Source: an uncultured Candidatus Saccharibacteria bacterium (GTDB lineage Bacteria; Patescibacteriota; Minisyncoccia; Phycocordibacterales; JABMNX01). Taken from it: a stretch of DNA of 64,000 nt. Made by a program: the position numbers and the translations under genes. The notes below the pieces were generated by a model. It was not told where the DNA came from. It searched no databases and saw only the letters and a list, made by a program, of their open reading frames with translations. This document shows, in pieces, positions 2,684 to 62,048 of the stretch. Numbering within the stretch: position 1 is the stretch's first letter; every line of letters begins with the position of its first letter. Location of the stretch: the NCBI GenBank assembly GCA_964575755.1, contig CAZNRH010000003.1, forward strand, positions 2,303 through 66,302, given 5' to 3'.

Positions 2684-3895
2684 ATGCGGTTTATATACAA
2701 AATAAAAAATAAAGACGGAGAGATAATAGAAAGCACTGCAACTGCTCGTGATAAGTTTGAATTGTACGATCAAATTAGAAAAGAAGGCTCGGAAGTAATT
2801 GAAGTGCGCGAACATGGCAAGAACAAATTCTCAATGGATAGGTTTAATGAGATTTTCGGCACAATTAAAGAGCATGAAAAAGTCATCTTAACTCGTAATC
2901 TAGGTGCAATGATAGGTGCAGGACTCTCACTGACAAGAGCTATTACGGTACTCGAGCGTCAAACTAAAAACCAAAAATTAAAAATGGTTCTCGCTGGAAT
3001 TAACAGTGATATAAAAAAGGGTGGCAATTTCCACACTGCATTAAAAAAGTTCCCCAAAGTATTTACACAACTTTTTGTATCCATGGTTCGCGCTGGTGAA
3101 GAGAGCGGTAAGTTATCGGGAGCACTTGATCTCATAGGCGCACAGTTAGAGCGCTCATACACGCTTAAAAAGAAAATAAAAGGAGCGATGATGTACCCGA
3201 GTATTATAATGGTTGCGATGATAATAATTGCCGTGTTGATGCTTATCTTTGTGGTACCAACTTTAACTCAAACATTTGGTGAGCTTGGTGCAGATTTACC
3301 TAAAAGTACGCAAACTATAATCATGGCAAGTGATTTCTTTATACAGCACACGATACTTGCAATAACAATACCAATCGCATTTGTCACTTTTATAATGTAT
3401 GTATTAAAGACAACAAGAGGACGAAGAGCATTTCATTTTATACTGTTGCATACTCCAATAATTGGTGGATTAGTAAAAGAGATTCAGTCAGCACGTACAG
3501 CCAGGACCCTAGCGTCACTCCTCTCGTCTGGAGTTGAGATAGTTACATCTATTTCTATTACTTCAGAGGTGATGCAAAACTCGTATTATAAAGATGTGCT
3601 CTCTCAAGCGCAAAATGACGTGCAAGAAGGCTCGCCTCTGTCGAGAGCATTTACAGAGAATGAACATCTCTATCCAATACTTGTGGGCGAGATGATTTCA
3701 GTTGGAGAGGAGACAGGTAAACTGCCAGATATGCTTCTGCGTGTTGCTGAGTTTTATGAATCAGAGGTTGAGCAAAAAACGAAAGACATGTCTACTATTA
3801 TTGAGCCGTTTCTGATGATTATTATAGGGGCGTTTGTTGGATTCTTTGCTTTGTCTATGATTTCTCCAATATATTCACTTTCAGAAAGTATTTAG
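2684..3895 (+). CDS. pilC: Type IV pilus inner-membrane platform protein of the PilC/GspF family
   Basis: About 400 aa with two GspF-like repeats and three transmembrane segments. It sits immediately downstream of pilB. Confidence 0.85.
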   Translation: MRFIYKIKNKDGEIIESTATARDKFELYDQIRKEGSEVIEVREHGKNKFSMDRFNEIFGTIKEHEKVILTRNLGAMIGAGLSLTRAITVLERQTKNQKLKMVLAGINSDIKKGGNFHTALKKFPKVFTQLFVSMVRAGEESGKLSGALDLIGAQLERSYTLKKKIKGAMMYPSIIMVAMIIIAVLMLIFVVPTLTQTFGELGADLPKSTQTIIMASDFFIQHTILAITIPIAFVTFIMYVLKTTRGRRAFHFILLHTPIIGGLVKEIQSARTARTLASLLSSGVEIVTSISITSEVMQNSYYKDVLSQAQNDVQEGSPLSRAFTENEHLYPILVGEMISVGEETGKLPDMLLRVAEFYESEVEQKTKDMSTIIEPFLMIIIGAFVGFFALSMISPIYSLSESI

Positions 3896-5983: not shown

Positions 5984-6034
5984 GTATCATTTTTCAGAAA
6001 AAATGAAAACAAAAATGAAAACAAAAGAATTATG

Positions 6035-6183
6035 CTCCCTGTTTGCCCAAGCTTTGCTTGGATACAAACAGCAGTGCAGAGCCTCCCTGTTTGCCCAAGC
6101 TTTGCTTGGATACAAACAGCAGTGCAGAGCCTCCCTGTTTGCCCAAGAGCGAAGCGATTGGTTGGCAAACAGCAGTGCAGTGA
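6035..6183 (+). repeat. Tandem array of about 48-nt hairpin-forming repeats. There are two perfect copies plus a third divergent copy, preceded by a 2x12-nt AAATGAAAACAA repeat.
   Basis: The unit CTCCCTGTTTGCCCAAGCTTTGCTTGGATACAAACAGCAGTGCAGAGC occurs at 6035-6082 and 6083-6130. Each unit holds the nested inverted repeats CTGTTTG/CAAACAG and CCAAGC/GCTTGG. Confidence 0.9.
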
Positions 6184-6251
6184 GGTCTTCAGACCGAGTC
6201 GTGAATAAGGAATTAGGAATTAAAAAATATAAAAACAGAGGATACGTAACC

Positions 6252-7619
6252 ATGCTGGTTCTTGTTTTTGCTGGCGTCTTTTTTACAATAGTGTCGGCGC
6301 TTTCAGGTTTTGTTTTTTTACAAAATAAAGTGCAGATTGCAAAAGAAAATAGAGAAAAAGCTTTTCAGATAGCTGAAGCAGGGCTAGATTATTACAAATG
6401 GTTCTTGGCACATTTTCCTAACGACTTAAAAGACGGGACAGGGACGTCTGGTCCGTATGTGCATTCTTACTCAGACCCAGAAGGTGGTGTGGTGGGGAAT
6501 TTCTCTCTTGATATTACTGGTAATACACAGTGTGGAATAGTTACCTCAATAAACATAACCTCGACAGGGGTATCCGATAACGACACCACTCTAGAGAGAG
6601 AGCTATTCGCGAAATATTCCAGACCATCAGTAGCAGAGTACTCTTTCATCCTAAATACAAATGATTGGAAGAAAGACCAGACTATCCTTGGTAAGTATCA
6701 CTCGAACAATGGAGTTCGCATGGACGCAGATAATAAATCGTTAGTGAGTAGCTCGGTAGCAAGTTGGACATGTACATCATCTCGCGGATGTGACCCTGAC
6801 TCAACCGAGGACGGCATCTTTGGAATTGGTGACAGTGCTCTATGGCAGTTTCCTGTACCTCAGATTGACTTTAATGGTATTACTGCTGATTTATCTTCAA
6901 TGAAGAATTTGGCACAAAATAGTGGTGGGATTTATCTCGGTGATTCAGGTGCAGAGGGATATCATATTTATCTACAAAGCGATGGAACGTTTGATGTATA
7001 TAGAGTTGATACTGTTGGAGATGGTTATTGGGCATATAGCTCACAGTGGACGTGGGAGATAGAAAACAATAAAGTTCTTTCGGAGACATTTCTTCAAACA
7101 TACACACCACCAGCAGATTGTAGTTTAGTTTTTGTGGAGGATATGTTGTGGTTGGAGGGTACAGTGAAAGGTAAACTAACAATTGTGTCAGCAGACTTAG
7201 TTAATTCAAATATTGAAACAGATATATATTTAGTAAACAATATAGAATACTCAACTTTAGTTGGTACAGATGGGTTAACAGTAATTGCGGAAGAGGATAT
7301 ATTATTATCTCCTGTAGTTCCAGACGATATGTCCATTCGAGGTATTTTTATAGCTCAAACAGGTCATTTTGGAAGAAATTACTACCACCCTGACAATGGA
7401 TATAGTGTAAGTGAGTCGTATCAGAATTCTTTTACAATAAATGGCTCAATTATTTCAAATGGACGTTCGTCAACTAGGTGGGATTGCCCAGATTATTGTT
7501 CAGGGTTTAATACGCGTAATAACTCATATGATCAGACACAGGCAAATAATCCTCCACCCTTAACTCCGTATACTAGTGATGATTTTAGGTTTGTTCAGTG
7601 GAGAGAAGAAACTTTATAG
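6252..7619 (+). CDS. Membrane-anchored pilus-associated protein (minor-pilin or PilX-like). The ORF track extends it to 6003 through the repeat array, which is unlikely to be coding.
   Basis: An ATG at 6252 with a purine-rich stretch upstream, followed by the N-terminal TM helix MLVLVFAGVFFTIVSALSGFV and a large Cys-containing extracellular domain. Confidence 0.45.
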   Translation: MLVLVFAGVFFTIVSALSGFVFLQNKVQIAKENREKAFQIAEAGLDYYKWFLAHFPNDLKDGTGTSGPYVHSYSDPEGGVVGNFSLDITGNTQCGIVTSINITSTGVSDNDTTLERELFAKYSRPSVAEYSFILNTNDWKKDQTILGKYHSNNGVRMDADNKSLVSSSVASWTCTSSRGCDPDSTEDGIFGIGDSALWQFPVPQIDFNGITADLSSMKNLAQNSGGIYLGDSGAEGYHIYLQSDGTFDVYRVDTVGDGYWAYSSQWTWEIENNKVLSETFLQTYTPPADCSLVFVEDMLWLEGTVKGKLTIVSADLVNSNIETDIYLVNNIEYSTLVGTDGLTVIAEEDILLSPVVPDDMSIRGIFIAQTGHFGRNYYHPDNGYSVSESYQNSFTINGSIISNGRSSTRWDCPDYCSGFNTRNNSYDQTQANNPPPLTPYTSDDFRFVQWREETL

Positions 7620-7640
7620 TAGTGTGATACAATTCGAGAT

Positions 7641-7763
7641 GTATGAATCCCGAACGAAATCGCGGACACAAACATAATATATAATAAATAAGTCGATAAT
7701 TAACAAAAGATTTAATCTAGTGACAAGGATTGTTTAAGTCCGTGTCCTATTTTGTACGGGATG
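7641..7763 (+). promoter_or_regulatory. Structured 5' leader element, copy 1, upstream of tpiA. Long-range helix ATCCCG-A-ACGAAAT..GGACAC / GTGTCC..ATTTTGT-A-CGGGAT encloses an AT-rich loop of about 60 nt and engages the start codon.
   Basis: A near-identical copy lies upstream of pgk, with 3 mismatches over about 123 nt. The ATG is embedded in the 3' strand of the helix. Confidence 0.6.
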
Positions 7764-8525
7764 AAAAAGATAATCATAGCCAACTGGAAGATGAATCCTG
7801 AAAGTGCCACAAAGGCAAAGGAACTCTTTATTGGAGTGAAGCAGGTAGCAAGTAAGCTTTCAAACGTAAAGACTGTTATAGCTACTCCGTTTGTATATTT
7901 ATCAGAGATTAGCAAATTATATCGTGGACATAGAATCGAGTTTGCAGCACAAGATGTATTTTGGGAGAAAAGAGGCTCATTTACTGGAGAGGTAAGCAGT
8001 GCGATGCTTAAAGACAGTGGGGCGACGCATGTCATAGTTGGTCATTCAGAGCGTCGTCTACTTGGCGAAGCAGATGTAGAGGTAAATCAAAAAGTTCTCG
8101 CTTCTACTCAAGCAGGTTTGACTGTTATACTTTGTATTGGCGAATCAGATCGCGATCATAGAGACGGCACACATCTTTCTTTTTTAACCTCACAGTTAGA
8201 ATCAGCACTTAAGGGTATATCTAAAAATAGACTTTCAAAAATTATAATTGCATATGAACCAATTTGGGCAATAGGTAAAAGTGAAGCTGATGCCATGAAG
8301 GGAGATGAGCTTCACGAGACAGTACTTTTTATTAGGAAAGTATTAACAGGTATCTTTGGAAAGAATCTTGCATTCAAAGTTCCTATTTTATACGGCGGGT
8401 CAGCAGGAAAGAGTAATACAGAAGTGTTACTTACCGAAGGTATGGTGGATGGGTTATTGGTAGGGCATGCAAGTCTGAAAATAGCTGAGTTTAGTGATAT
8501 GTTGAAGATAGCGCAAAAAATTTAG
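7761..8525 (+). CDS. tpiA: Triosephosphate isomerase
   Basis: IIANWKMN N-terminus, VGHSERR catalytic motif and the YEPIWAIGTG-like region. The start is taken as the ATG at 7761, which matches the leader/start arrangement of pgk. Confidence 0.9.
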   Translation: MKKIIIANWKMNPESATKAKELFIGVKQVASKLSNVKTVIATPFVYLSEISKLYRGHRIEFAAQDVFWEKRGSFTGEVSSAMLKDSGATHVIVGHSERRLLGEADVEVNQKVLASTQAGLTVILCIGESDRDHRDGTHLSFLTSQLESALKGISKNRLSKIIIAYEPIWAIGKSEADAMKGDELHETVLFIRKVLTGIFGKNLAFKVPILYGGSAGKSNTEVLLTEGMVDGLLVGHASLKIAEFSDMLKIAQKI

Positions 8526-8534
8526 TAAAAAATA

Positions 8535-8657
8535 GTATGAATCCCGAACGAAATCGTGGACACAAACATAATATATGATAAATAAGTCGATAATTAACAA
8601 AAGATTTAATCTAGTGACAAGGATTGTTTAAGTCCGTGTCCTATTCTGTACGGGATG
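8535..8657 (+). promoter_or_regulatory. Structured 5' leader element, copy 2, upstream of pgk
   Basis: About 97% identical to 7641-7763. The helix again ends in gggATG. Confidence 0.6.
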
Positions 8658-9755
8658 AAAAGTATTAAAGATGCAGGAGACGTAAAAGGAAAGAGAGTAC
8701 TTGTTCGAATTGATATTGATGACTCTGGAGTGAGTGCACTCCCCACTAATGCGCTTAAACCAACACTTTCTTATCTTAAAATGGCAGGTGCACGCGTCAT
8801 CCTTTTAGGGCATGTAGGACGTGACGGCAGTGTGTCTTCACGTAAGATTTTTGAAATACTAAAGAAAGAAATAGAGATTAGTTTTATTCCAGACATCGTT
8901 GGAGAAGTAGCCAGAGCAAGCATTAATGAAATGAAAGATGGGGAAGTCGTCTTGTTAGAAAATGTACGTGGCGACACAAGAGAAATGGAAAATGACGAAA
9001 CTTTTTCAAAAGAACTCGCAAGCCTAGCTGACATATATGTAAATGATGCCTTTGCAGTTTCACACAGAGAGCATGCATCACTTACTGGTATAACAAAACA
9101 TTTACCCAGTTATGCAGGACTTCGTTTACTAGAAGAAATAGAGGAGCTCTCTAAAGCCATTAACCCAAAGTCTCCATCCATTTTTATTATCAGTGGAGCA
9201 AAGATAAAGACTAAATTGCCTCTAATAGAAAAATTTATAGAAGTATATGACTATGTATTTGTAGGAGGAGTTCTTGCAAATAACTTCTTTGAAGCTAAAG
9301 GGTTTGAGATTGGCACATCAGTTGTGTCAGATGAGAATATTGATATATCACACCTACTTAATAATGAAAAAGTTCTAATACCAACTGACGTTGTTGTAGA
9401 AGTTGATGGAAAGTCATTAATAAAAAAAGCAGACGGGGTATTAAAAGAAGAAAAAATAGTAGATGCCGGTCCAGAGACTGTCTTAATGCTTAAAGAAAAA
9501 ATTAAAGACATGAACAGTGTTGTATGGAATGGTCCGCTTGGAGAGTATGAGCGTGGTTTTGATACAGCCACCAAAGACTTAGCGCTTGGTATTGCAGAAA
9601 GCCACGCCTATTCAATCGCAGGTGGTGGAGACACTCTTAACGCAATCGCAGATCTCAATATAGAGGAGAAGTTCTCATTTGTCTCAACTGGCGGAGGTGC
9701 AATGCTTGCGTTTTTACTACATGGAACATTGTCTGCAATTGAAGCCTTAAAATAG
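8655..9755 (+). CDS. pgk: Phosphoglycerate kinase (short form)
   Basis: The C-terminal GGGDTLNAI...STGGGAMLAFL signature and an N-terminal substrate-binding region. Confidence 0.85.
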   Translation: MKSIKDAGDVKGKRVLVRIDIDDSGVSALPTNALKPTLSYLKMAGARVILLGHVGRDGSVSSRKIFEILKKEIEISFIPDIVGEVARASINEMKDGEVVLLENVRGDTREMENDETFSKELASLADIYVNDAFAVSHREHASLTGITKHLPSYAGLRLLEEIEELSKAINPKSPSIFIISGAKIKTKLPLIEKFIEVYDYVFVGGVLANNFFEAKGFEIGTSVVSDENIDISHLLNNEKVLIPTDVVVEVDGKSLIKKADGVLKEEKIVDAGPETVLMLKEKIKDMNSVVWNGPLGEYERGFDTATKDLALGIAESHAYSIAGGGDTLNAIADLNIEEKFSFVSTGGGAMLAFLLHGTLSAIEALK

Positions 9756-12213: not shown

Positions 12214-12265
12214 AATAATTATCCTCCACATAAACACTTACCACAATAGCGCATCGACAACATGA

Positions 12266-12293
12266 CGAATAGTTCGGTTAACCGAACTATTCG
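12266..12293. promoter_or_regulatory. Perfect 28-bp palindrome CGAATAGTTCGGTTAACCGAACTATTCG, a putative operator, upstream of the yerC-like gene
   Basis: A second copy overlaps the stop codon of the same gene at 12713-12738. Confidence 0.55.
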
Positions 12294-12308: not shown

Positions 12309-12719
12309 ATGACTTATGTGTCAAAAGGACCTCTTAAAAGTGATATAAAGAAACGCTTAGATAAACAATTTGTTAATACTATTGTATCGCTACGTACCAC
12401 TTCTGGTGGTAAGAACTTTATTTCAGAACTTTTAACAGAATCAGAACAAATAATGCTTGCAAAGCGTTTGATGATGATCTTTATGATTGCAGAAGGCGTG
12501 TCGCAATATAAAATAAAATATTTATTACAAGTCAGCTCTTCTACTGTCTCGCATATAGCGTCAAGGCTTGATTCAGGGGCATATAAACATATAAAGAAAG
12601 ATTGTAGAAGTAAAAGAAATCGTCAGACTTTTTGGGATGAGTTAGAGATTATAGTTAGGCTTGGCATGCCTTCTATGGGCAAGAGACGTTGGGATTGGCT
12701 TGATGGATTATACGAATAG
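12309..12719 (+). CDS. TrpR-like YerC/YecD-family DNA-binding protein
   Basis: The helix-turn-helix region LAKRLMMIFMIAEGVSQYKIKYLLQVSSSTVSHIASRL resembles the YerC/YecD Trp-repressor fold. Confidence 0.55.
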   Translation: MTYVSKGPLKSDIKKRLDKQFVNTIVSLRTTSGGKNFISELLTESEQIMLAKRLMMIFMIAEGVSQYKIKYLLQVSSSTVSHIASRLDSGAYKHIKKDCRSKRNRQTFWDELEIIVRLGMPSMGKRRWDWLDGLYE

Positions 12720-12738
12720 TTCGGTTAACCGAACTATT
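12713..12738. promoter_or_regulatory. Second copy of the 26/28-bp palindrome, overlapping the yerC-like stop codon and lying upstream of rnhA
   Basis: CGAATAGTTCGGTTAACCGAACTATT. Confidence 0.55.
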
Positions 12739-43566: not shown

Positions 43567-44700
43567 CTACCCCTGTATTTCAAGGTCTTCTCTATAATCT
43601 ACCTCAAATATCTTCCACATAGAAAGGAAGAATCCAGCGATGATTGGACCTATAATAAATCCAGTTATTCCAAACAAAGTAAGCCCACCAAGCGTGGAAA
43701 TGAGAACAATAGCGTCAGGAATCTTAGCATCACGACCAACTAGTATTGGACGTAATATGTTGTCTATCAAGCTTATAATAATAAAGCCTCCAGCCAGCAC
43801 AAGAACTCCTTGCCATACCGCGCCTGTGAGCAAAAGTACAACTCCAGCAGGAAACCAAATAATAGTTGGACCAATGGCAGGTATAATTGAAAACATCATC
43901 ATAACGACAGTCCAAAGCAGGACTCCTTCTATTCCAGCAATCCAAAACAACACCCCGCCAATGGATCCTTGCAGTACAGCTATCACAAGAGTGCCTTTAA
44001 ATATTGACCGGATGATAATCTCAAAGTTTTTAAATAGACCTTGTTCTCGTTCATCGCCAAGCGGAAGAATGTGGGAAATCGTACGTCCTATCGACGGACC
44101 ATCACGAAGTAAGAAAAATAAAATATAAATCATCAAGAAAAAACTAATAAGTACGGAAAATGTTGCCTGTCCAAATACAACAGCCTGCCTAGCGAACCAG
44201 CCACTTGTGGATTGAACTAGGGAAGTAAGTTTTTCCTTAACAGTATCCTGCTGTATCCCATAACGCTCAAAGTAGCTAAGGGCTATAACAGTCTTATTTA
44301 CTAGGTTAGTTTGTGAAGATTCAATAGATTCGTTTGATATGCGGTTGTAGACTTGCAGAGATTCTTGAACTACGAGCCCCCCAACAGTCCAGAGAGGTAT
44401 AAATAAGACAACGATAATAGTAAGCAGTGAAAGAAGAGAAGAGAGTGTTTTATTTTTAAAAACAGTTAACCACTTCTTTTGTACAGGGTTAAATACAATA
44501 GCTAGTATAACAGCCCAGAAAATAGGCATAATAAAATCTTGGATAAGCCAAACGAATACTATCGTGGCAAAAGATAAAAGCCCAAAGAAAAGTACATTTT
44601 GTACTGTAAGGAATTTAGCTAAATGTGAGTGTTCCATTAGAATGTATTGTATCACGAAGCTTAAAAATATTAAAAAAAATAAAAAACGCCCTGCATACAT
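43567..44700 (-). CDS. AI-2E family transporter / UPF0118 permease
   Basis: Eight TM segments on a PerM-like protein. Confidence 0.7.
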   Translation of the reverse strand: MYAGRFLFFLIFLSFVIQYILMEHSHLAKFLTVQNVLFFGLLSFATIVFVWLIQDFIMPIFWAVILAIVFNPVQKKWLTVFKNKTLSSLLSLLTIIVVLFIPLWTVGGLVVQESLQVYNRISNESIESSQTNLVNKTVIALSYFERYGIQQDTVKEKLTSLVQSTSGWFARQAVVFGQATFSVLISFFLMIYILFFLLRDGPSIGRTISHILPLGDEREQGLFKNFEIIIRSIFKGTLVIAVLQGSIGGVLFWIAGIEGVLLWTVVMMMFSIIPAIGPTIIWFPAGVVLLLTGAVWQGVLVLAGGFIIISLIDNILRPILVGRDAKIPDAIVLISTLGGLTLFGITGFIIGPIIAGFFLSMWKIFEVDYREDLEIQG

Positions 44701-44933
44701 GTGTAGGACGTTTTCCTATTTTGTAAAGGAGGGATATAGACACTTTAGATTAGGTGTTTAGATTATAGAAATGTTTACGTCAAATTAGTTTGCTTAAAAA
44801 CAGAAACAGCTTACAAAAGTGAACCTTTACAGGTTGCTTTTGCAGGCTGATGCGTTCAAGTAAAAAACACATGAATGATTACTAAAAAGACGATCAAAAA
44901 AGCACCAATCCGTTGAAAGACTCAGCTTTACAT

Positions 44934-61879: not shown

Positions 61880-61974
61880 GTTCAATAGTTGGCGATATTT
61901 TATTTTCACTTGAGTCATGAAGAATACACAAAACTCCAATGCATTACACTGGGGTTTTGTGTTGTAAATGTGTG

Positions 61975-62048
61975 TCCGCCCTCCAGGACTTGAACCTGGA
62001 ACCTCCAAGATATAAGCTTGGTGCTCTAACCAATTGAGCTAAGAGCGG
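61975..62048 (-). tRNA. tRNA-Ile with anticodon UAU
   Basis: Cloverleaf on the minus strand:
- acceptor CCGCTCT/AGGGCGG;
- D-arm GCTC-AATTGGTTA-GAGC;
- anticodon stem CCAAG/CTTGG with loop CTTATAT;
- T-arm CCAGG-TTCAAGT-CCTGG;
- discriminator A, with CCA not encoded. Confidence 0.8.

Follow-up and report, generated by a model that had tools for sequence, protein, structure and literature searches.

Near-identical segments preceding tpiA and pgk are probably non-autonomous mobile elements of a start-codon-associated family in Patescibacteria

Two near-identical segments precede tpiA and pgk in the window, which is the whole 64-kb stretch of DNA analysed here. With a probability of about 80%, each segment is a non-autonomous, MITE-type mobile element of about 116 nt with terminal inverted repeats, belonging to a family that is abundant in Patescibacteria and is not specific to glycolysis. 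The family shows one arrangement, in which the old ATG-A is followed by an element running from ATCCCG to CGGGAT and then by G-A, with TGAA duplicated, and this arrangement occurs before about 80 unrelated genes in a single orientation. The original prediction had interpreted the pair as a cis-regulatory RNA through which two glycolytic enzymes are controlled together. The unrelated downstream genes, the absence of the segments from three relatives, the target duplications and the existence of a coding version all speak against that interpretation.

RESULTS

The repeat pair and its fold

The segments at positions 7641-7767 and 8535-8661 constitute a direct repeat of 127 nt, 98% identical and 894 nt apart. 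In the alignment they differ at three positions (C/T in the 5′ arm, A/G in the loop and T/C in the 3′ arm), in agreement with the near-identical pair of about 123 nt with three mismatches originally reported. The identity ends at GTATGA upstream and at ATGAAAA downstream. Probes of 20 nt and 27 nt, with up to three mismatches allowed, detected only these two loci in the 64 kb (chance expectation 0.01 and 0.00, respectively), and nhmmer with a profile of the wider family returned the same two copies only. A third partial match, at 44700-44730, was rejected as a chance resemblance; it is a terminator-like hairpin 3′ of a gene.

The outer helix found by RNAfold is exactly 6+7+6 bp in both copies and encloses an AT-rich loop, as had been predicted, with terminal inverted repeats (ATCCCGAACGAAAT.. 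paired with ..ATTTTGTACGGGAT). The folding energy is -31.8 kcal/mol for copy 1 (z -4.1) and -28.3 kcal/mol for copy 2 (z -2.4); the predicted weakening of one pair in copy 2 by a T to C change was borne out (Table 1). The ATGs of tpiA (7761-7763) and pgk (8655-8657) indeed lie within the 3′ strand. The reverse strands of the two copies also fold better than shuffled sequences (z -2.2 and -2.7), and because this holds for both strands, the fold reflects an inverted repeat at the DNA level and not a strand-specific signal. The arms of the window copies are slightly degenerate, and the degenerate arm variant is common to both. The 116-nt element is without coding capacity, its sole ORF being the 13 codons from the old ATG; this upstream ORF contains two of the three inter-copy differences, both silent (CGC to CGT and TAA to TGA). 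The lack of a Shine-Dalgarno sequence was correctly noted before but is not a special feature of these genes, since an SD-like motif precedes only 2 of the 55 genes in the window.

TABLE 1 Positions of the elements and of the associated features at the tpiA-pgk locus
Feature	Position	Strand	Basis
Extended -10 promoter of tpiA, TGATACAAT, leaderless type, predates insertion	7625..7633	+	Same motif in relatives
Old (pre-insertion) tpiA start codon	7643..7645	+	Promoter distance as in relatives
Upstream ORF from old tpiA ATG, 13 codons, MNPERNRGHKHNI then stop	7643-7684	+	Window sequence
Left copy of duplicated target TGAA, copy 1	7644..7647	+	Target logo; right copy 7762-7765
Element copy 1, 116 nt, ATCCCG...CGGGAT, probable non-autonomous family member	7647..7762	+	nhmmer E 4.7e-18
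5′ arm, copy 1, ATCCCGAACGAAATCGCGGACAC (family consensus ATCCCGTACGAAATCGCGGAC)	7647..7669	+	Fold, family comparison
3′ arm, copy 1, GTGTCCTATTTTGTACGGGAT; final A + duplicated TG = working ATG	7742..7762	+	Fold, target logo
tpiA CDS from regenerated ATG, MKKIIIANWKMN...	7761..8525	+	ORF translation; PF00121 genes in same place in relatives
Old pgk start codon, 11 nt past tpiA stop	8537..8539	+	Window sequence vs L001
Upstream ORF from old pgk ATG, same 13 codons	8537-8578	+	Window sequence
Element copy 2, 116 nt; TGAA duplicated at 8538-8541 and 8656-8659	8541..8656	+	nhmmer E 2.9e-16
5′ arm, copy 2	8541..8563	+	Fold, family comparison
3′ arm, copy 2, ATTCTGT variant, one extra mismatch	8636..8656	+	Fold, copy alignment
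pgk CDS from regenerated ATG, MKSIKDAGDVKGKRV	8655..9755	+	ORF translation

Empty sites in syntenic relatives

The nearest syntenic relatives, L001 (Pgk 76% identical) and L003 and L004 (68%), keep the gene order T2SSF, pilin-like genes, TIM, PGK, HIT and RecJ, and both window elements are absent from all three. In the relatives, tpiA and pgk overlap or are 18-26 nt apart, which makes the separate transcription of the two genes that had been proposed unlikely. The tpiA promoter adjoins the ATG at a distance of 7-8 nt in the relatives (TGATACAAT in L001 and L004, TGCTACAAT in L003), and in the window TGATACAAT is found 9 nt 5′ of the old tpiA ATG (7643). Excision of the pgk copy in silico yields ATGAAAAGTATTAAAGA, which matches the closest relative, L001. 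The absence of both segments from the relatives and the restoration of ATGAAAAGTATTAAAGA on removal thus show that both window segments are insertions relative to these genomes. A second presence/absence case is provided by an insertion at prfB in L010 that is missing from L012.

Distribution and position of the family

Pattern scans located the same element at more than 100 loci in Patescibacteria (CPR bacteria) and in at least 117 metagenome stretches. Seven matches among the genome representatives were true (Paceibacterota, Saccharibacteria and Nomurabacteria); 4 of the 11 genome matches (L006, L008, L011 and L014) were discarded as single-arm chance matches in non-CPR genomes. Carriage by viruses was likewise rejected, the single IMG/VR match being a chance match inside a GC-rich phage gene. 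Family elements are about 116-125 nt long, with termini ATCCCGTACGAAAT...ATTTCGTACGGGAT around an AT-rich, variable centre, and the terminal repeat of the family consensus is a perfect 14 bp plus 7-9 bp more. Rfam 15 contained no match at the gathering score or at E<=10, in keeping with the earlier failure to recognise a described motif, and literature searches, including one with the arm sequence itself, found no published description of the element.

The downstream genes include ribosomal-protein and translation-factor genes, ssb, murG, pheT, nrdR, folD, glycosyltransferase genes and many others, covering translation, replication, cell wall, nucleotide metabolism and glycosyltransferases. 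The suggested check for recurrence before other central-metabolism genes thus revealed recurrence before genes of all kinds, and the presence of the same element before ribosomal-protein, ssb, murG and many other genes indicates that it is not a regulator of glycolysis.

An unrelated gene takes its ATG from the right end in 83 of the 86 unique copies (96%), and an ORF of at least 50 codons follows 72 of those 83. On the left, the old start codon (ATG, GTG or TTG) is kept in 77/86 family members; ATGA flanks 43 copies on this side and ATGG flanks 12, with matching changes at the right junction. The target logo, built from 55 sites, reads ATGRA (A 52/55, T 55/55, G 53/55, R as A 40 and G 11, A 55/55). 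TGN is duplicated in 60 of the 85 family members, and the fourth base is A in all 55 logo sites; the duplication is 3 to 5 nt long (TGA in 14, TGRA in about 60 and TGGAA in 3), which is atypical of a transposase or a MITE. Both window copies come with a TGAA duplication and an old start codon of their own. Because the terminal A of the element and the duplicated TG rebuild an ATG, the coding sequence is left untouched. Orientation relative to the gene is 70:2 (p 1e-18), and divergent subfamilies are likewise located on start codons.

A model combining the ATGRA target with the loss of gene-disrupting insertions predicts a start-codon occupancy of 35%. The observed 96% exceeds this prediction (p ~1e-33), so that the target and the loss of such insertions are insufficient to explain the position, and this counts against the MITE reading. 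Among copies at the same locus in different genomes, 2/135 positions differ in the arms, 63/348 in the centre and 80/456 in the flanking coding sequence, so that change in the arms is about ten times below that in the centre. A purely selfish, decaying repeat would not show such conservation of its arms, and this also counts against the MITE reading.

Units encoding a GIY-YIG nuclease

The same termini also bound longer units, of about 280 nt, that carry the gene of a stand-alone GIY-YIG nuclease of 86 aa; the last codons of this gene are themselves the right terminus (RFLF-C/R-TG, then stop). The ORF matches PF01541 (E 1e-15) and consists of the catalytic domain only; with the group I intron endonuclease model it scores 25 bits, far below the cut-off of 56 bits, and by sequence the closest solved relative of the protein is BH0048 (PDB 1ZG2, E 6e-12). 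At least 1694 protein clusters of about 86 aa were found, and every one with an informative organism name came from Patescibacteria lineages. Sampling by protein, without reference to the arms, gave four loci, each of them immediately 5′ of a gene start; genes preceded by such units include ftsE-like, glycosyltransferase, epimerase, TMEM175 and signal-peptide genes. One GIY-YIG locus (L137) has perfect arms and an ATGA duplication, another (L134) contains an internally deleted GIY-YIG unit of MITE size adjoining the gene, and up to six element units in standard, GIY-bearing and variant forms occur within 12.6 kb in L025.

The GIY-YIG units and the short element have termini, site type and orientation in common. 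In the terminal frame of the GIY-YIG gene, an ORF ending on an ATGA overlap is present in 25 of 78 elements, compared with 10.7 +/- 2.8 for shuffled centres; this excess is more simply explained as a relic of the GIY-YIG reading frame. Such an ORF is absent from both window copies. Homology between the centres of the 120-nt form and the GIY-YIG unit is weak (z ~2.5 against shuffled centres), and the link between the two therefore comes from the termini, the reading frame and the L134 intermediate. Since the coding units of about 280 nt have the same termini, the 120-nt form is probably a non-autonomous, MITE-like relative of them. The 64-kb window itself contains no GIY-YIG gene and only the two element copies; together with the slightly degenerate arms, this counts against the mobile-element reading and makes any activity in this genome hypothetical.

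DISCUSSION

The target-site duplications and the related coding version give the segments the properties of a mobile element. The main alternative is that the element is a functional RNA first: a general translational device, or a protein-binding or RNase III site, in the 5′ leaders of Patescibacteria, kept by the host for controlling or enabling initiation at the regenerated AUG (for example, with ribosomes passed from the old AUG to the new across the stem), and with mobility as its mere means of spread. The ATG is always part of the 3′ strand, and most copies keep the old start codon; the orientation is strict although both termini could rebuild an ATG in either orientation; and between genomes, the arms of copies at one locus change some tenfold less than the centre. 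An AGGA-type motif 30-49 nt 5′ of the ATG, present in 30 of 60 diverse copies, complements the UCCU bulge of the 3′ arm, G.U-type mismatches outnumber A.C-type mismatches 11 to 2 in helix 1, and the two differences in the upstream ORF of the window are silent. In addition, essential genes in ribosomal-protein operons carry the element, which must thus tolerate high expression. However, the wobble asymmetry disappears with helix 2 (~8 to 8) and is mostly due to one recurrent variant also present in GIY-YIG units. Covariation had been proposed as the check: the pairing is kept in relatives and concerted changes of both arms occur in subfamilies, but the RNAalifold covariation term is only -0.12, with a double change in 1 of 18 pairs in a sample chosen on the 5′ arm. 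The arms are thus conserved as sequence with almost no covariation, and only the terminal helix is conserved, the centre having no consensus structure and not being conserved between subfamilies. The two strands fold equally well, the downstream genes are unrelated to one another, relatives fare well without the element, and a nuclease needing both ends, or gene conversion among copies, could equally conserve the arms. We regard a primarily RNA-level function as rather unlikely, though a general RNA-level role of the hairpin in downstream translation is possible.

A portable, outward-facing promoter giving a leaderless or short-leader mRNA for the gene on which it landed appears improbable. 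The AT-rich centre holds many TATAAT-like hexamers, the orientation relative to the gene is fixed, and TATTTT or TATTCT stands 7 nt before the window ATGs, at the spacing of native leaderless promoters here; the family consensus at that position is nevertheless TATTTC, without the critical last T. The consensus scan detected no promoter-like site, no sigma-70 -35/-10 pair and no intrinsic terminator (hairpin and U-run) inside either window copy. In 60 diverse copies the native strong TGnTAnnnT occurs 0 times on the gene strand and 10 times on the other, and no promoter-like motif shows a positional peak. Moreover, the centre differs between subfamilies, and elements are found inside operons, where a promoter is unneeded. 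A purely local event, in which a single intergenic region of this strain underwent recent segmental duplication or gene conversion, would fit the closeness and 98% identity of the window copies and their common degenerate arm variant. This reading, already envisaged in the original prediction, is refuted by the more than 100 homologous elements at unrelated genes in other genomes, and the separate TGAA duplication and old start codon of each copy also argue against it, which leaves it a negligible probability.

The mobile-element reading places the family beside several known systems. Correia elements of Neisseria, ERIC and RUP are non-coding repeats of 100-150 nt with terminal inverted repeats, short target duplications and many copies; they are co-transcribed with neighbouring genes, form long hairpins and have intergenic targets, TA or other simple sequences. 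The element here is like them in size, inverted-repeat ends and hairpin, with no known similarity in sequence, and it differs from them in that 83/86 copies are on start codons in one orientation. We know of no member of these families on start codons, rebuilding an ATG or with a GIY-YIG partner. The REP/BIME-RAYT system also has a small nuclease-type gene flanked by inverted copies of a scattered non-coding repeat. However, RAYTs are HUH/Y1 enzymes, and REPs are 20-40 nt long and located after genes without target duplication, whereas the gene here is of the GIY-YIG type and ends in the right repeat, which forms its C-terminal codons. Homing enzymes have DNA-binding domains, one cognate site, and neither terminal inverted repeats nor MITE-like progeny. 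Of the features of a homing endonuclease, the GIY-YIG domain is present here, and a single cognate host target and a separate DNA-binding domain are absent: the protein is a bare domain of 86 aa, and hundreds of different genes have such a site at their start. To our knowledge, no GIY-YIG protein acts as a transposase.

Free-standing GIY-YIG homing genes of phages, and the T4 mobA/gene 60 bypass cassette, which combines a nuclease gene at a gene boundary with a means of maintaining host-gene expression (bioRxiv 10.1101/2022.08.31.505936), resemble the family also in the persistence of degenerate, nuclease-less versions. The stand-alone UPF0213/bacterial Slx1-like GIY-YIG proteins (Dunin-Horkawicz et al., 2006, PMC1564403) have the same minimal single-domain architecture as the protein here; no link of their family to repeats or mobility has been described, and its members are functionally largely uncharacterised. 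The rRNA genes of CPR bacteria contain scattered non-intron insertions with GIY-YIG ORFs and many short, uncharacterised insertions of <200 bp, according to the portions of the account drawn on here (PMC11270868). Phylum and ORF kind are the same as in the present case, but the hosts are rRNA genes, and those portions mention neither inverted-repeat termini nor start codons. Riboswitches and start-codon-sequestering leaders resemble the element in burying an AUG in a stable helix from which an alternative state could free it; unlike riboswitches, the element has no conserved core resembling a ligand pocket, no covariation, no link to a single pathway and no Rfam match. The window segments should thus not be annotated as a glycolysis riboswitch, and hundreds of similar 'conserved leaders' in Patescibacteria genomes would have the same origin.

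Considering these results, we propose the following scenario for the tpiA-pgk locus. A GIY-YIG protein of the bacterial Slx1-like/UPF0213 type may recognise the arms and move or maintain both forms of the element. Transcription of tpiA and pgk would begin at the old TGATACAAT promoter and run through both elements, which would place the hairpins in the mRNA. Ribosomes may still initiate at the old AUG and translate the 13-codon ORF through the 5′ arm; this translation may melt the helix and expose the regenerated AUG, Shine-Dalgarno sequences being scarcely used in this genome. Across the family, the frame of the upstream ORF relative to the gene is distributed 27/26/24, and its stop lies 36-108 nt before the gene ATG in most copies. 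Because the upstream ORF occurs in all three frames and mostly ends far from the ATG, melting is plausible at best, and a conserved coupling to the upstream ORF as the general mechanism was rejected in view of the uniform frames and of the stops, most of which are in the centre. An in-frame coding insertion like the Rickettsia palindromic elements was also rejected, as the elements contain stops and their lengths are not divisible by three.

A broader and quite tentative proposal is that the element and its 86-aa GIY-YIG partner represent an undescribed mobile element that colonises start codons. The bare Slx1-like domain would mobilise or maintain the hairpin ends; the coding form would use the initiation site of the host gene and return ribosomes to it via the ATGA stop-start overlap; and selection would retain the non-coding hairpin for its part in starting translation at the rebuilt AUG, with ribosomes either transferred across the stem or melting the helix as they read the upstream ORF; Shine-Dalgarno sequences are largely lacking in this phylum. 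We found no described transposon or homing system that fits an inverted-repeat element whose sole gene is an 86-aa GIY-YIG domain and which is located on start codons in 96% of copies. Essential genes, among them those of ribosomal proteins, EF-G, IF-2 and SSB, tolerate having their AUG buried in a stable hairpin (-28 to -32 kcal/mol in the window copies), and such hairpins, in genomes almost without Shine-Dalgarno sequences, offer a handle on initiation in little-studied bacteria. Element copies also give rise to repeat-driven deletions or chimeric assemblies, as seen between L062 and L101 and between L047 and L117.

Two insertions at the start codons of tpiA and pgk

A direct repeat of 127 nt, 98% identical with three differences, precedes tpiA and pgk, confirming the two near-identical segments of the original prediction. 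Probes from either end of the repeat matched these two places only in 64 kb (chance expectation ≤0.01), and the profile of the wider family recovered the same two copies in the window and no others. Folding of both copies reproduced the 6+7+6-bp outer helix as first drawn, with energies of −31.8 (z −4.1) and −28.3 kcal/mol (z −2.4). Better folding than in shuffles was likewise seen for the complementary strands (z −2.2 and −2.7), indicating that the signal is an inverted repeat in the DNA and not specific to one strand.

The Pgk protein assigns the organism to Patescibacteria (Paceibacteria/Kaiserbacteria-like names). The gene order T2SSF, pilin-like genes, TIM, PGK, HIT and RecJ is kept in three syntenic relatives, L001 (76% Pgk identity to the window), L003 and L004 (both 68%); other L-numbers denote genome or metagenome loci carrying family members or homologous sites. 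In these relatives, tpiA either overlaps pgk by a single base or ends 18–26 nt before it, and an extended −10 box (TGATACAAT or TGCTACAAT), forming a leaderless-type promoter, lies 7–8 nt upstream of the tpiA ATG. When the element and one duplicate copy are taken out of the window's pgk junction (...AATAGTATGA, element, GAAAAGTATTAAAGATGCAGG), ATGAAAAGTATTAAAGATGCAGG results, and L001 has ATGAAAAGTATTAAAGAAGCTGG. The empty sites of the relatives and the restored pgk junction thus show that each copy is an insertion of approximately 116 nt exactly on a start codon, with target duplication and a rebuilt ATG.

Locations of features in the window and at other loci
Feature	Location	Strand	Remark
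Direct repeat, copies 1 and 2	7641–7767; 8535–8661		before tpiA and pgk
Rebuilt ATG	7761; 8655		opens tpiA; opens pgk
Extended −10 box TGATACAAT	7625–7633		ATG at 7643, 9 nt later, is first part of repeat
Putative upstream ORF MNPERNRGHKHNI	7643–7684; 8537–8578		from old ATGs
AAGGA	7726–7730; 8620–8624		instances of AGGA-type motif
Spacer with 48-nt unit CTCCCTGTTTGCCCAAGCTTTGCTTGGATACAAACAGCAGTGCAGAGC	5984–6252		identical units 6035–6082 and 6083–6130, partial third to ~6170; ORF from 6003 reads through
27-nt segments ACGAATAGTTCGGTTAACCGAACTATT	12265–12291; 12712–12738		identical, each with perfect palindrome
136-aa ORF	12309–12719		at position of relatives' TrpR-like gene
tRNA-Ile	61974–62048	−	anticodon TAT
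L010, ~70-nt variant	~871–942	−	arms ..GAAGC/GCTT.., in last prfB codons
L012, mini-hairpin	~200–240	−	35 nt, arm to arm only
L121, copy	1077–1193 of reversed locus	−	right end mutated to CGGGAC
L137/L138, 23S_rRNA_IVP-domain gene	~2960–3379		Parcubacteria contig
L137, GIY unit			perfect arms, ATGA on both sides
L135, GIY unit			arms changed in concert; stop overlaps next ATG
L134, decayed unit			beside 124-nt internally deleted GIY unit still starting ATGTTTTACGCTTATA
L139, GIY unit			followed by short element on next start codon

A hairpin-element family residing on start codons

Scanning species-representative genomes with a pattern fitting either arm gave 11 matches: seven full elements, from Paceibacterota, Saccharibacteria, Nomurabacteria and one further MAG, and four single-arm chance hits in other phyla. 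In metagenome contigs scanned with the consensus 5′ arm, at least 117 stretches matched. The 86 unique full elements extracted from all loci (the genome and metagenome matches listed) are mostly 116–125 nt long, with some ~81-nt variants, and consist of a 5′ arm, ATCCCGTACGAAAT(C/A)GCGGAC, an AT-rich centre differing from subfamily to subfamily, and a 3′ arm, GTCCGCG-TCCT-ATTTCGTACGGGAT. The window copies are slightly degenerate members of this family (GAAC for GTAC; TTTTG or TTCTG for TTTCG). Divergent subfamilies whose two arms have changed in concert (among their arm pairs GTTAG/CTAAC, GTTCC/GGAAC, GAAGC/GCTTC and CACGTAT/ATACGTG) likewise occupy start codons.

The last two element bases and the next base form an ATG in 83 of the 86 elements, and 72 of these are followed by an ORF of 50 codons or more. 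The downstream genes are unrelated and, judged by their N-termini, include rplD, rplV, rplX, rplO, rpsI, rpmI, fusA, infB, typA, ssb, rnhB, pth, murG, pheT, nrdR, tig, folD, purN and glycosyltransferases. The orientation of the element with respect to the gene is 70:2. On the left, the flank reads ATGA (43), ATGG (12), ATG directly (7), ATGGA (3), ATGT (3) or, in a few cases, GTG/TTG, and it covaries with the right junction (ATGA...ATGA, ATGG...ATGG, ATGT...ATGT). Over 55 sites, the reconstructed target reads A(52) T(55) G(53) R(A40, G11) A(55/55). This is most simply read as duplication of the four bases TGRA on either side of TCCCG...CGGGA, with the last A of the element completing the new ATG; in L015, the same junction replaced an old GTG start by ATG. 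In 14 copies the duplicated stretch is 3 nt long and in three it is 5 nt, and the few insertions outside start codons also duplicate TNNA (TTGA at the 3′ end of prfB in L010; TTCA in L090 and L126).

The L010 insertion, a short variant, replaces the C-terminal EAEKDL of PrfB by DPVRSRPRV, and the L012 site is intact. In L121, the ATG is not rebuilt and a long ORF continues in frame from within the element, so that the gene may start at another codon. L062 and L101 share an identical left flank and element before different downstream genes (ssb and an rpsR-like gene), as do L047 and L117 before two unrelated genes. Either recombination of two element copies caused a deletion, or the metagenome assembly is chimeric at the repeat.

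Coding units that carry a GIY-YIG nuclease gene

Units of 277–282 nt with the termini of the element (GIY units) occur in L010, L016, L025 (twice), L033, L051, L097, L112 and L123, each with one 86-aa ORF matching PF01541 (GIY-YIG; E 1e-15). The right arm (AAGCGTTTCCTATTTTGTACGGGAT) supplies the final codons of this ORF (...K R F L F C/R T G). The ORF terminates at the TGA within the ATGA junction, or at a TAA if a further element comes next. GIY unit and 120-nt form have the same 3′ arm, down to the asymmetric TCCT bulge. In four loci sampled through the protein, independently of the arms, the unit was in every case directly upstream of, and co-oriented with, another gene. Some called ORFs reach back to the host's old ATG (MNPVQNNLV-MFY... 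and MIPYEII-MFY...), so that in those cases the nuclease could be translated from the host initiation site.

The ~86-aa protein family comprises at least 1694 clusters; most lack an informative organism name, and all that carry one are from Patescibacteria lineages. The closest solved relative is the UPF0213 protein BH0048 (1ZG2; E 6e-12), placing the protein among the stand-alone minimal GIY-YIG proteins that Dunin-Horkawicz et al. (PMC1564403) put in one group with Slx1. The frame used at the end of the GIY-YIG gene runs without a stop into the ATGA overlap in 25 of the 78 non-coding elements, compared with 10.7 ± 2.8 for shuffled centres, and direct homology between the standard-form centre and the GIY unit is weak (z ~2.5). 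The 120-nt form is thus best seen as a non-autonomous relative that has the two ends of the GIY unit; only for the L134 type is a simple deletion in one step documented.

At the prfB–ftsE junction, several genomes (L010, L016, L051, L097, L112 and L123) have a GIY unit and then a 120-nt element; a GTG start with a TGATAAAAT-type promoter precedes both. In L012, a mini-hairpin occupies the expected place of the GIY unit, apparently a near-complete internal deletion. The 23S_rRNA_IVP-domain gene in L137/L138, a few kb from the GIY unit, belongs to a family first found in rRNA intervening sequences.

Evaluation of regulatory and selfish origins

The original prediction was of a duplicated cis-regulatory RNA leader co-regulating tpiA and pgk. 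The element had no match in Rfam. In 36 diverse copies selected on an exact 5′ arm, a choice that restricts the power of the comparison, RNAalifold retained the terminal helix alone (covariation term −0.12) and found no consensus structure in the centre, and the ratio of G.U-type to A.C-type mismatches was 11:2 in helix 1 and approximately even with helix 2 added. No promoter-like or terminator-like sites lay within either window copy; across 60 copies, the native strong motif TGnTAnnnT was found 0 times on the gene strand versus 10 on the other, and promoter motifs showed no positional peak. That tpiA and pgk have no Shine-Dalgarno sequence upstream was correctly noted, but is the rule in this genome, since only two of 55 window genes show an SD-like motif no more than 16 nt from the ATG. 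Preceding unrelated genes and not behaving as a riboswitch-like leader, the element is not a regulator of glycolysis.

Several window genes have TGnTAnnnT 5–10 nt before the ATG, and initiation in the window seems largely leaderless or SD-independent. An AGGA/GGAG/GAGG motif, the complement of the bulged UCCU in the 3′ arm, lies 30–49 nt upstream of the rebuilt ATG in 30 of 60 diverse copies.

In its size, its inverted repeats, the target duplication and the empty sites of relatives, the element has most of the properties of a MITE. A plain selfish repeat does not explain its start-codon occupancy. Taking the window to represent the genome, ATGRA was counted at 22 gene starts, at 40 intergenic places and at 309 places within genes, so that an ATGRA-specific nuclease with loss of all gene-disrupting insertions would give a start-codon share of ~35%, compared with the observed 83/86 (p ~1e-33). 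Nor does it explain the conservation of the arms. In five same-locus copy pairs from different genomes, the 3′ arm, which lay outside the search pattern, differed at 2/135 positions, compared with 63/348 in the centre and 80/456 in the first 90 nt of the downstream gene (Fisher p 7e-8). The centre and the flanks diverge in step, as they should if the copies of a pair descend from a single insertion. For the arms, this leaves either selection in place or homogenisation through conversion or re-insertion.

Considering these results, the two window copies are members of a phylum-wide family of hairpin elements on start codons, linked to a tiny GIY-YIG gene, and we propose the following scenario. 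The nuclease may recognise the identical ends, perhaps in hairpin or cruciform form as Slx1-like enzymes do, and move or maintain the elements. In the coding form, the host initiation site would drive the nuclease gene, and the ATGA overlap would hand ribosomes back to the host gene. In the window, a transcript from TGATACAAT may cover element 1 and tpiA, then element 2 and pgk; ribosomes starting at the old AUGs would translate MNPERNRGHKHNI and, traversing the 5′ arm, would melt the helix that holds the rebuilt AUG. Of the three differences that separate the window copies, two lie in the MNPERNRGHKHNI ORF and are silent (CGC to CGT, TAA to TGA), a weak hint, not evidence. Across the family, neither the frame nor the end point of an upstream ORF is fixed, and helix opening is thus the least secure step; RNase III might instead cut the stem, as in rRNA intervening sequences.

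Relation to known systems

Its residence on start codons in a fixed orientation, together with the rebuilt ATG and a GIY-YIG partner, sets this family apart from Rickettsia palindromic elements and from the known Correia, ERIC, RUP and REP-RAYT elements. Unlike homing endonuclease genes, the units have inverted-repeat ends, occupy many different sites and encode a bare catalytic domain. The mobA/gene 60 cassette of phage T4, in which a nuclease travels with a device keeping the host gene expressed, is a conceptual parallel (10.1101/2022.08.31.505936). A 2024 survey of CPR rRNA insertions describes GIY-YIG ORFs in non-intron insertions and many short uncharacterised insertions (PMC11270868), which may be the same elements. 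In the full-text literature, as far as covered, no description of the family or its arm sequence was found, and the family is apparently new, though an earlier description is possible. Its interest lies in the start-codon finding, the conservation of the arms in place and the use of a buried AUG, more than in the two copies themselves.

Other repeats and a tRNA in the window

A spacer of ~270 nt between two pilin-like genes contains the CTCCCTGTTTGCCCAAGCTTTGCTTGGATACAAACAGCAGTGCAGAGC repeat, each unit of which includes a palindrome. This spacer is absent in L001, L003 and L004 (gaps of 3–11 nt) and may be a second, unrelated inserted repeat. One ACGAATAGTTCGGTTAACCGAACTATT segment lies before, and the other at the end of, the 136-aa ORF, and both may be operator sites. 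The window also encodes a tRNA-Ile with a TAT anticodon, an uncommon bacterial way of reading AUA.
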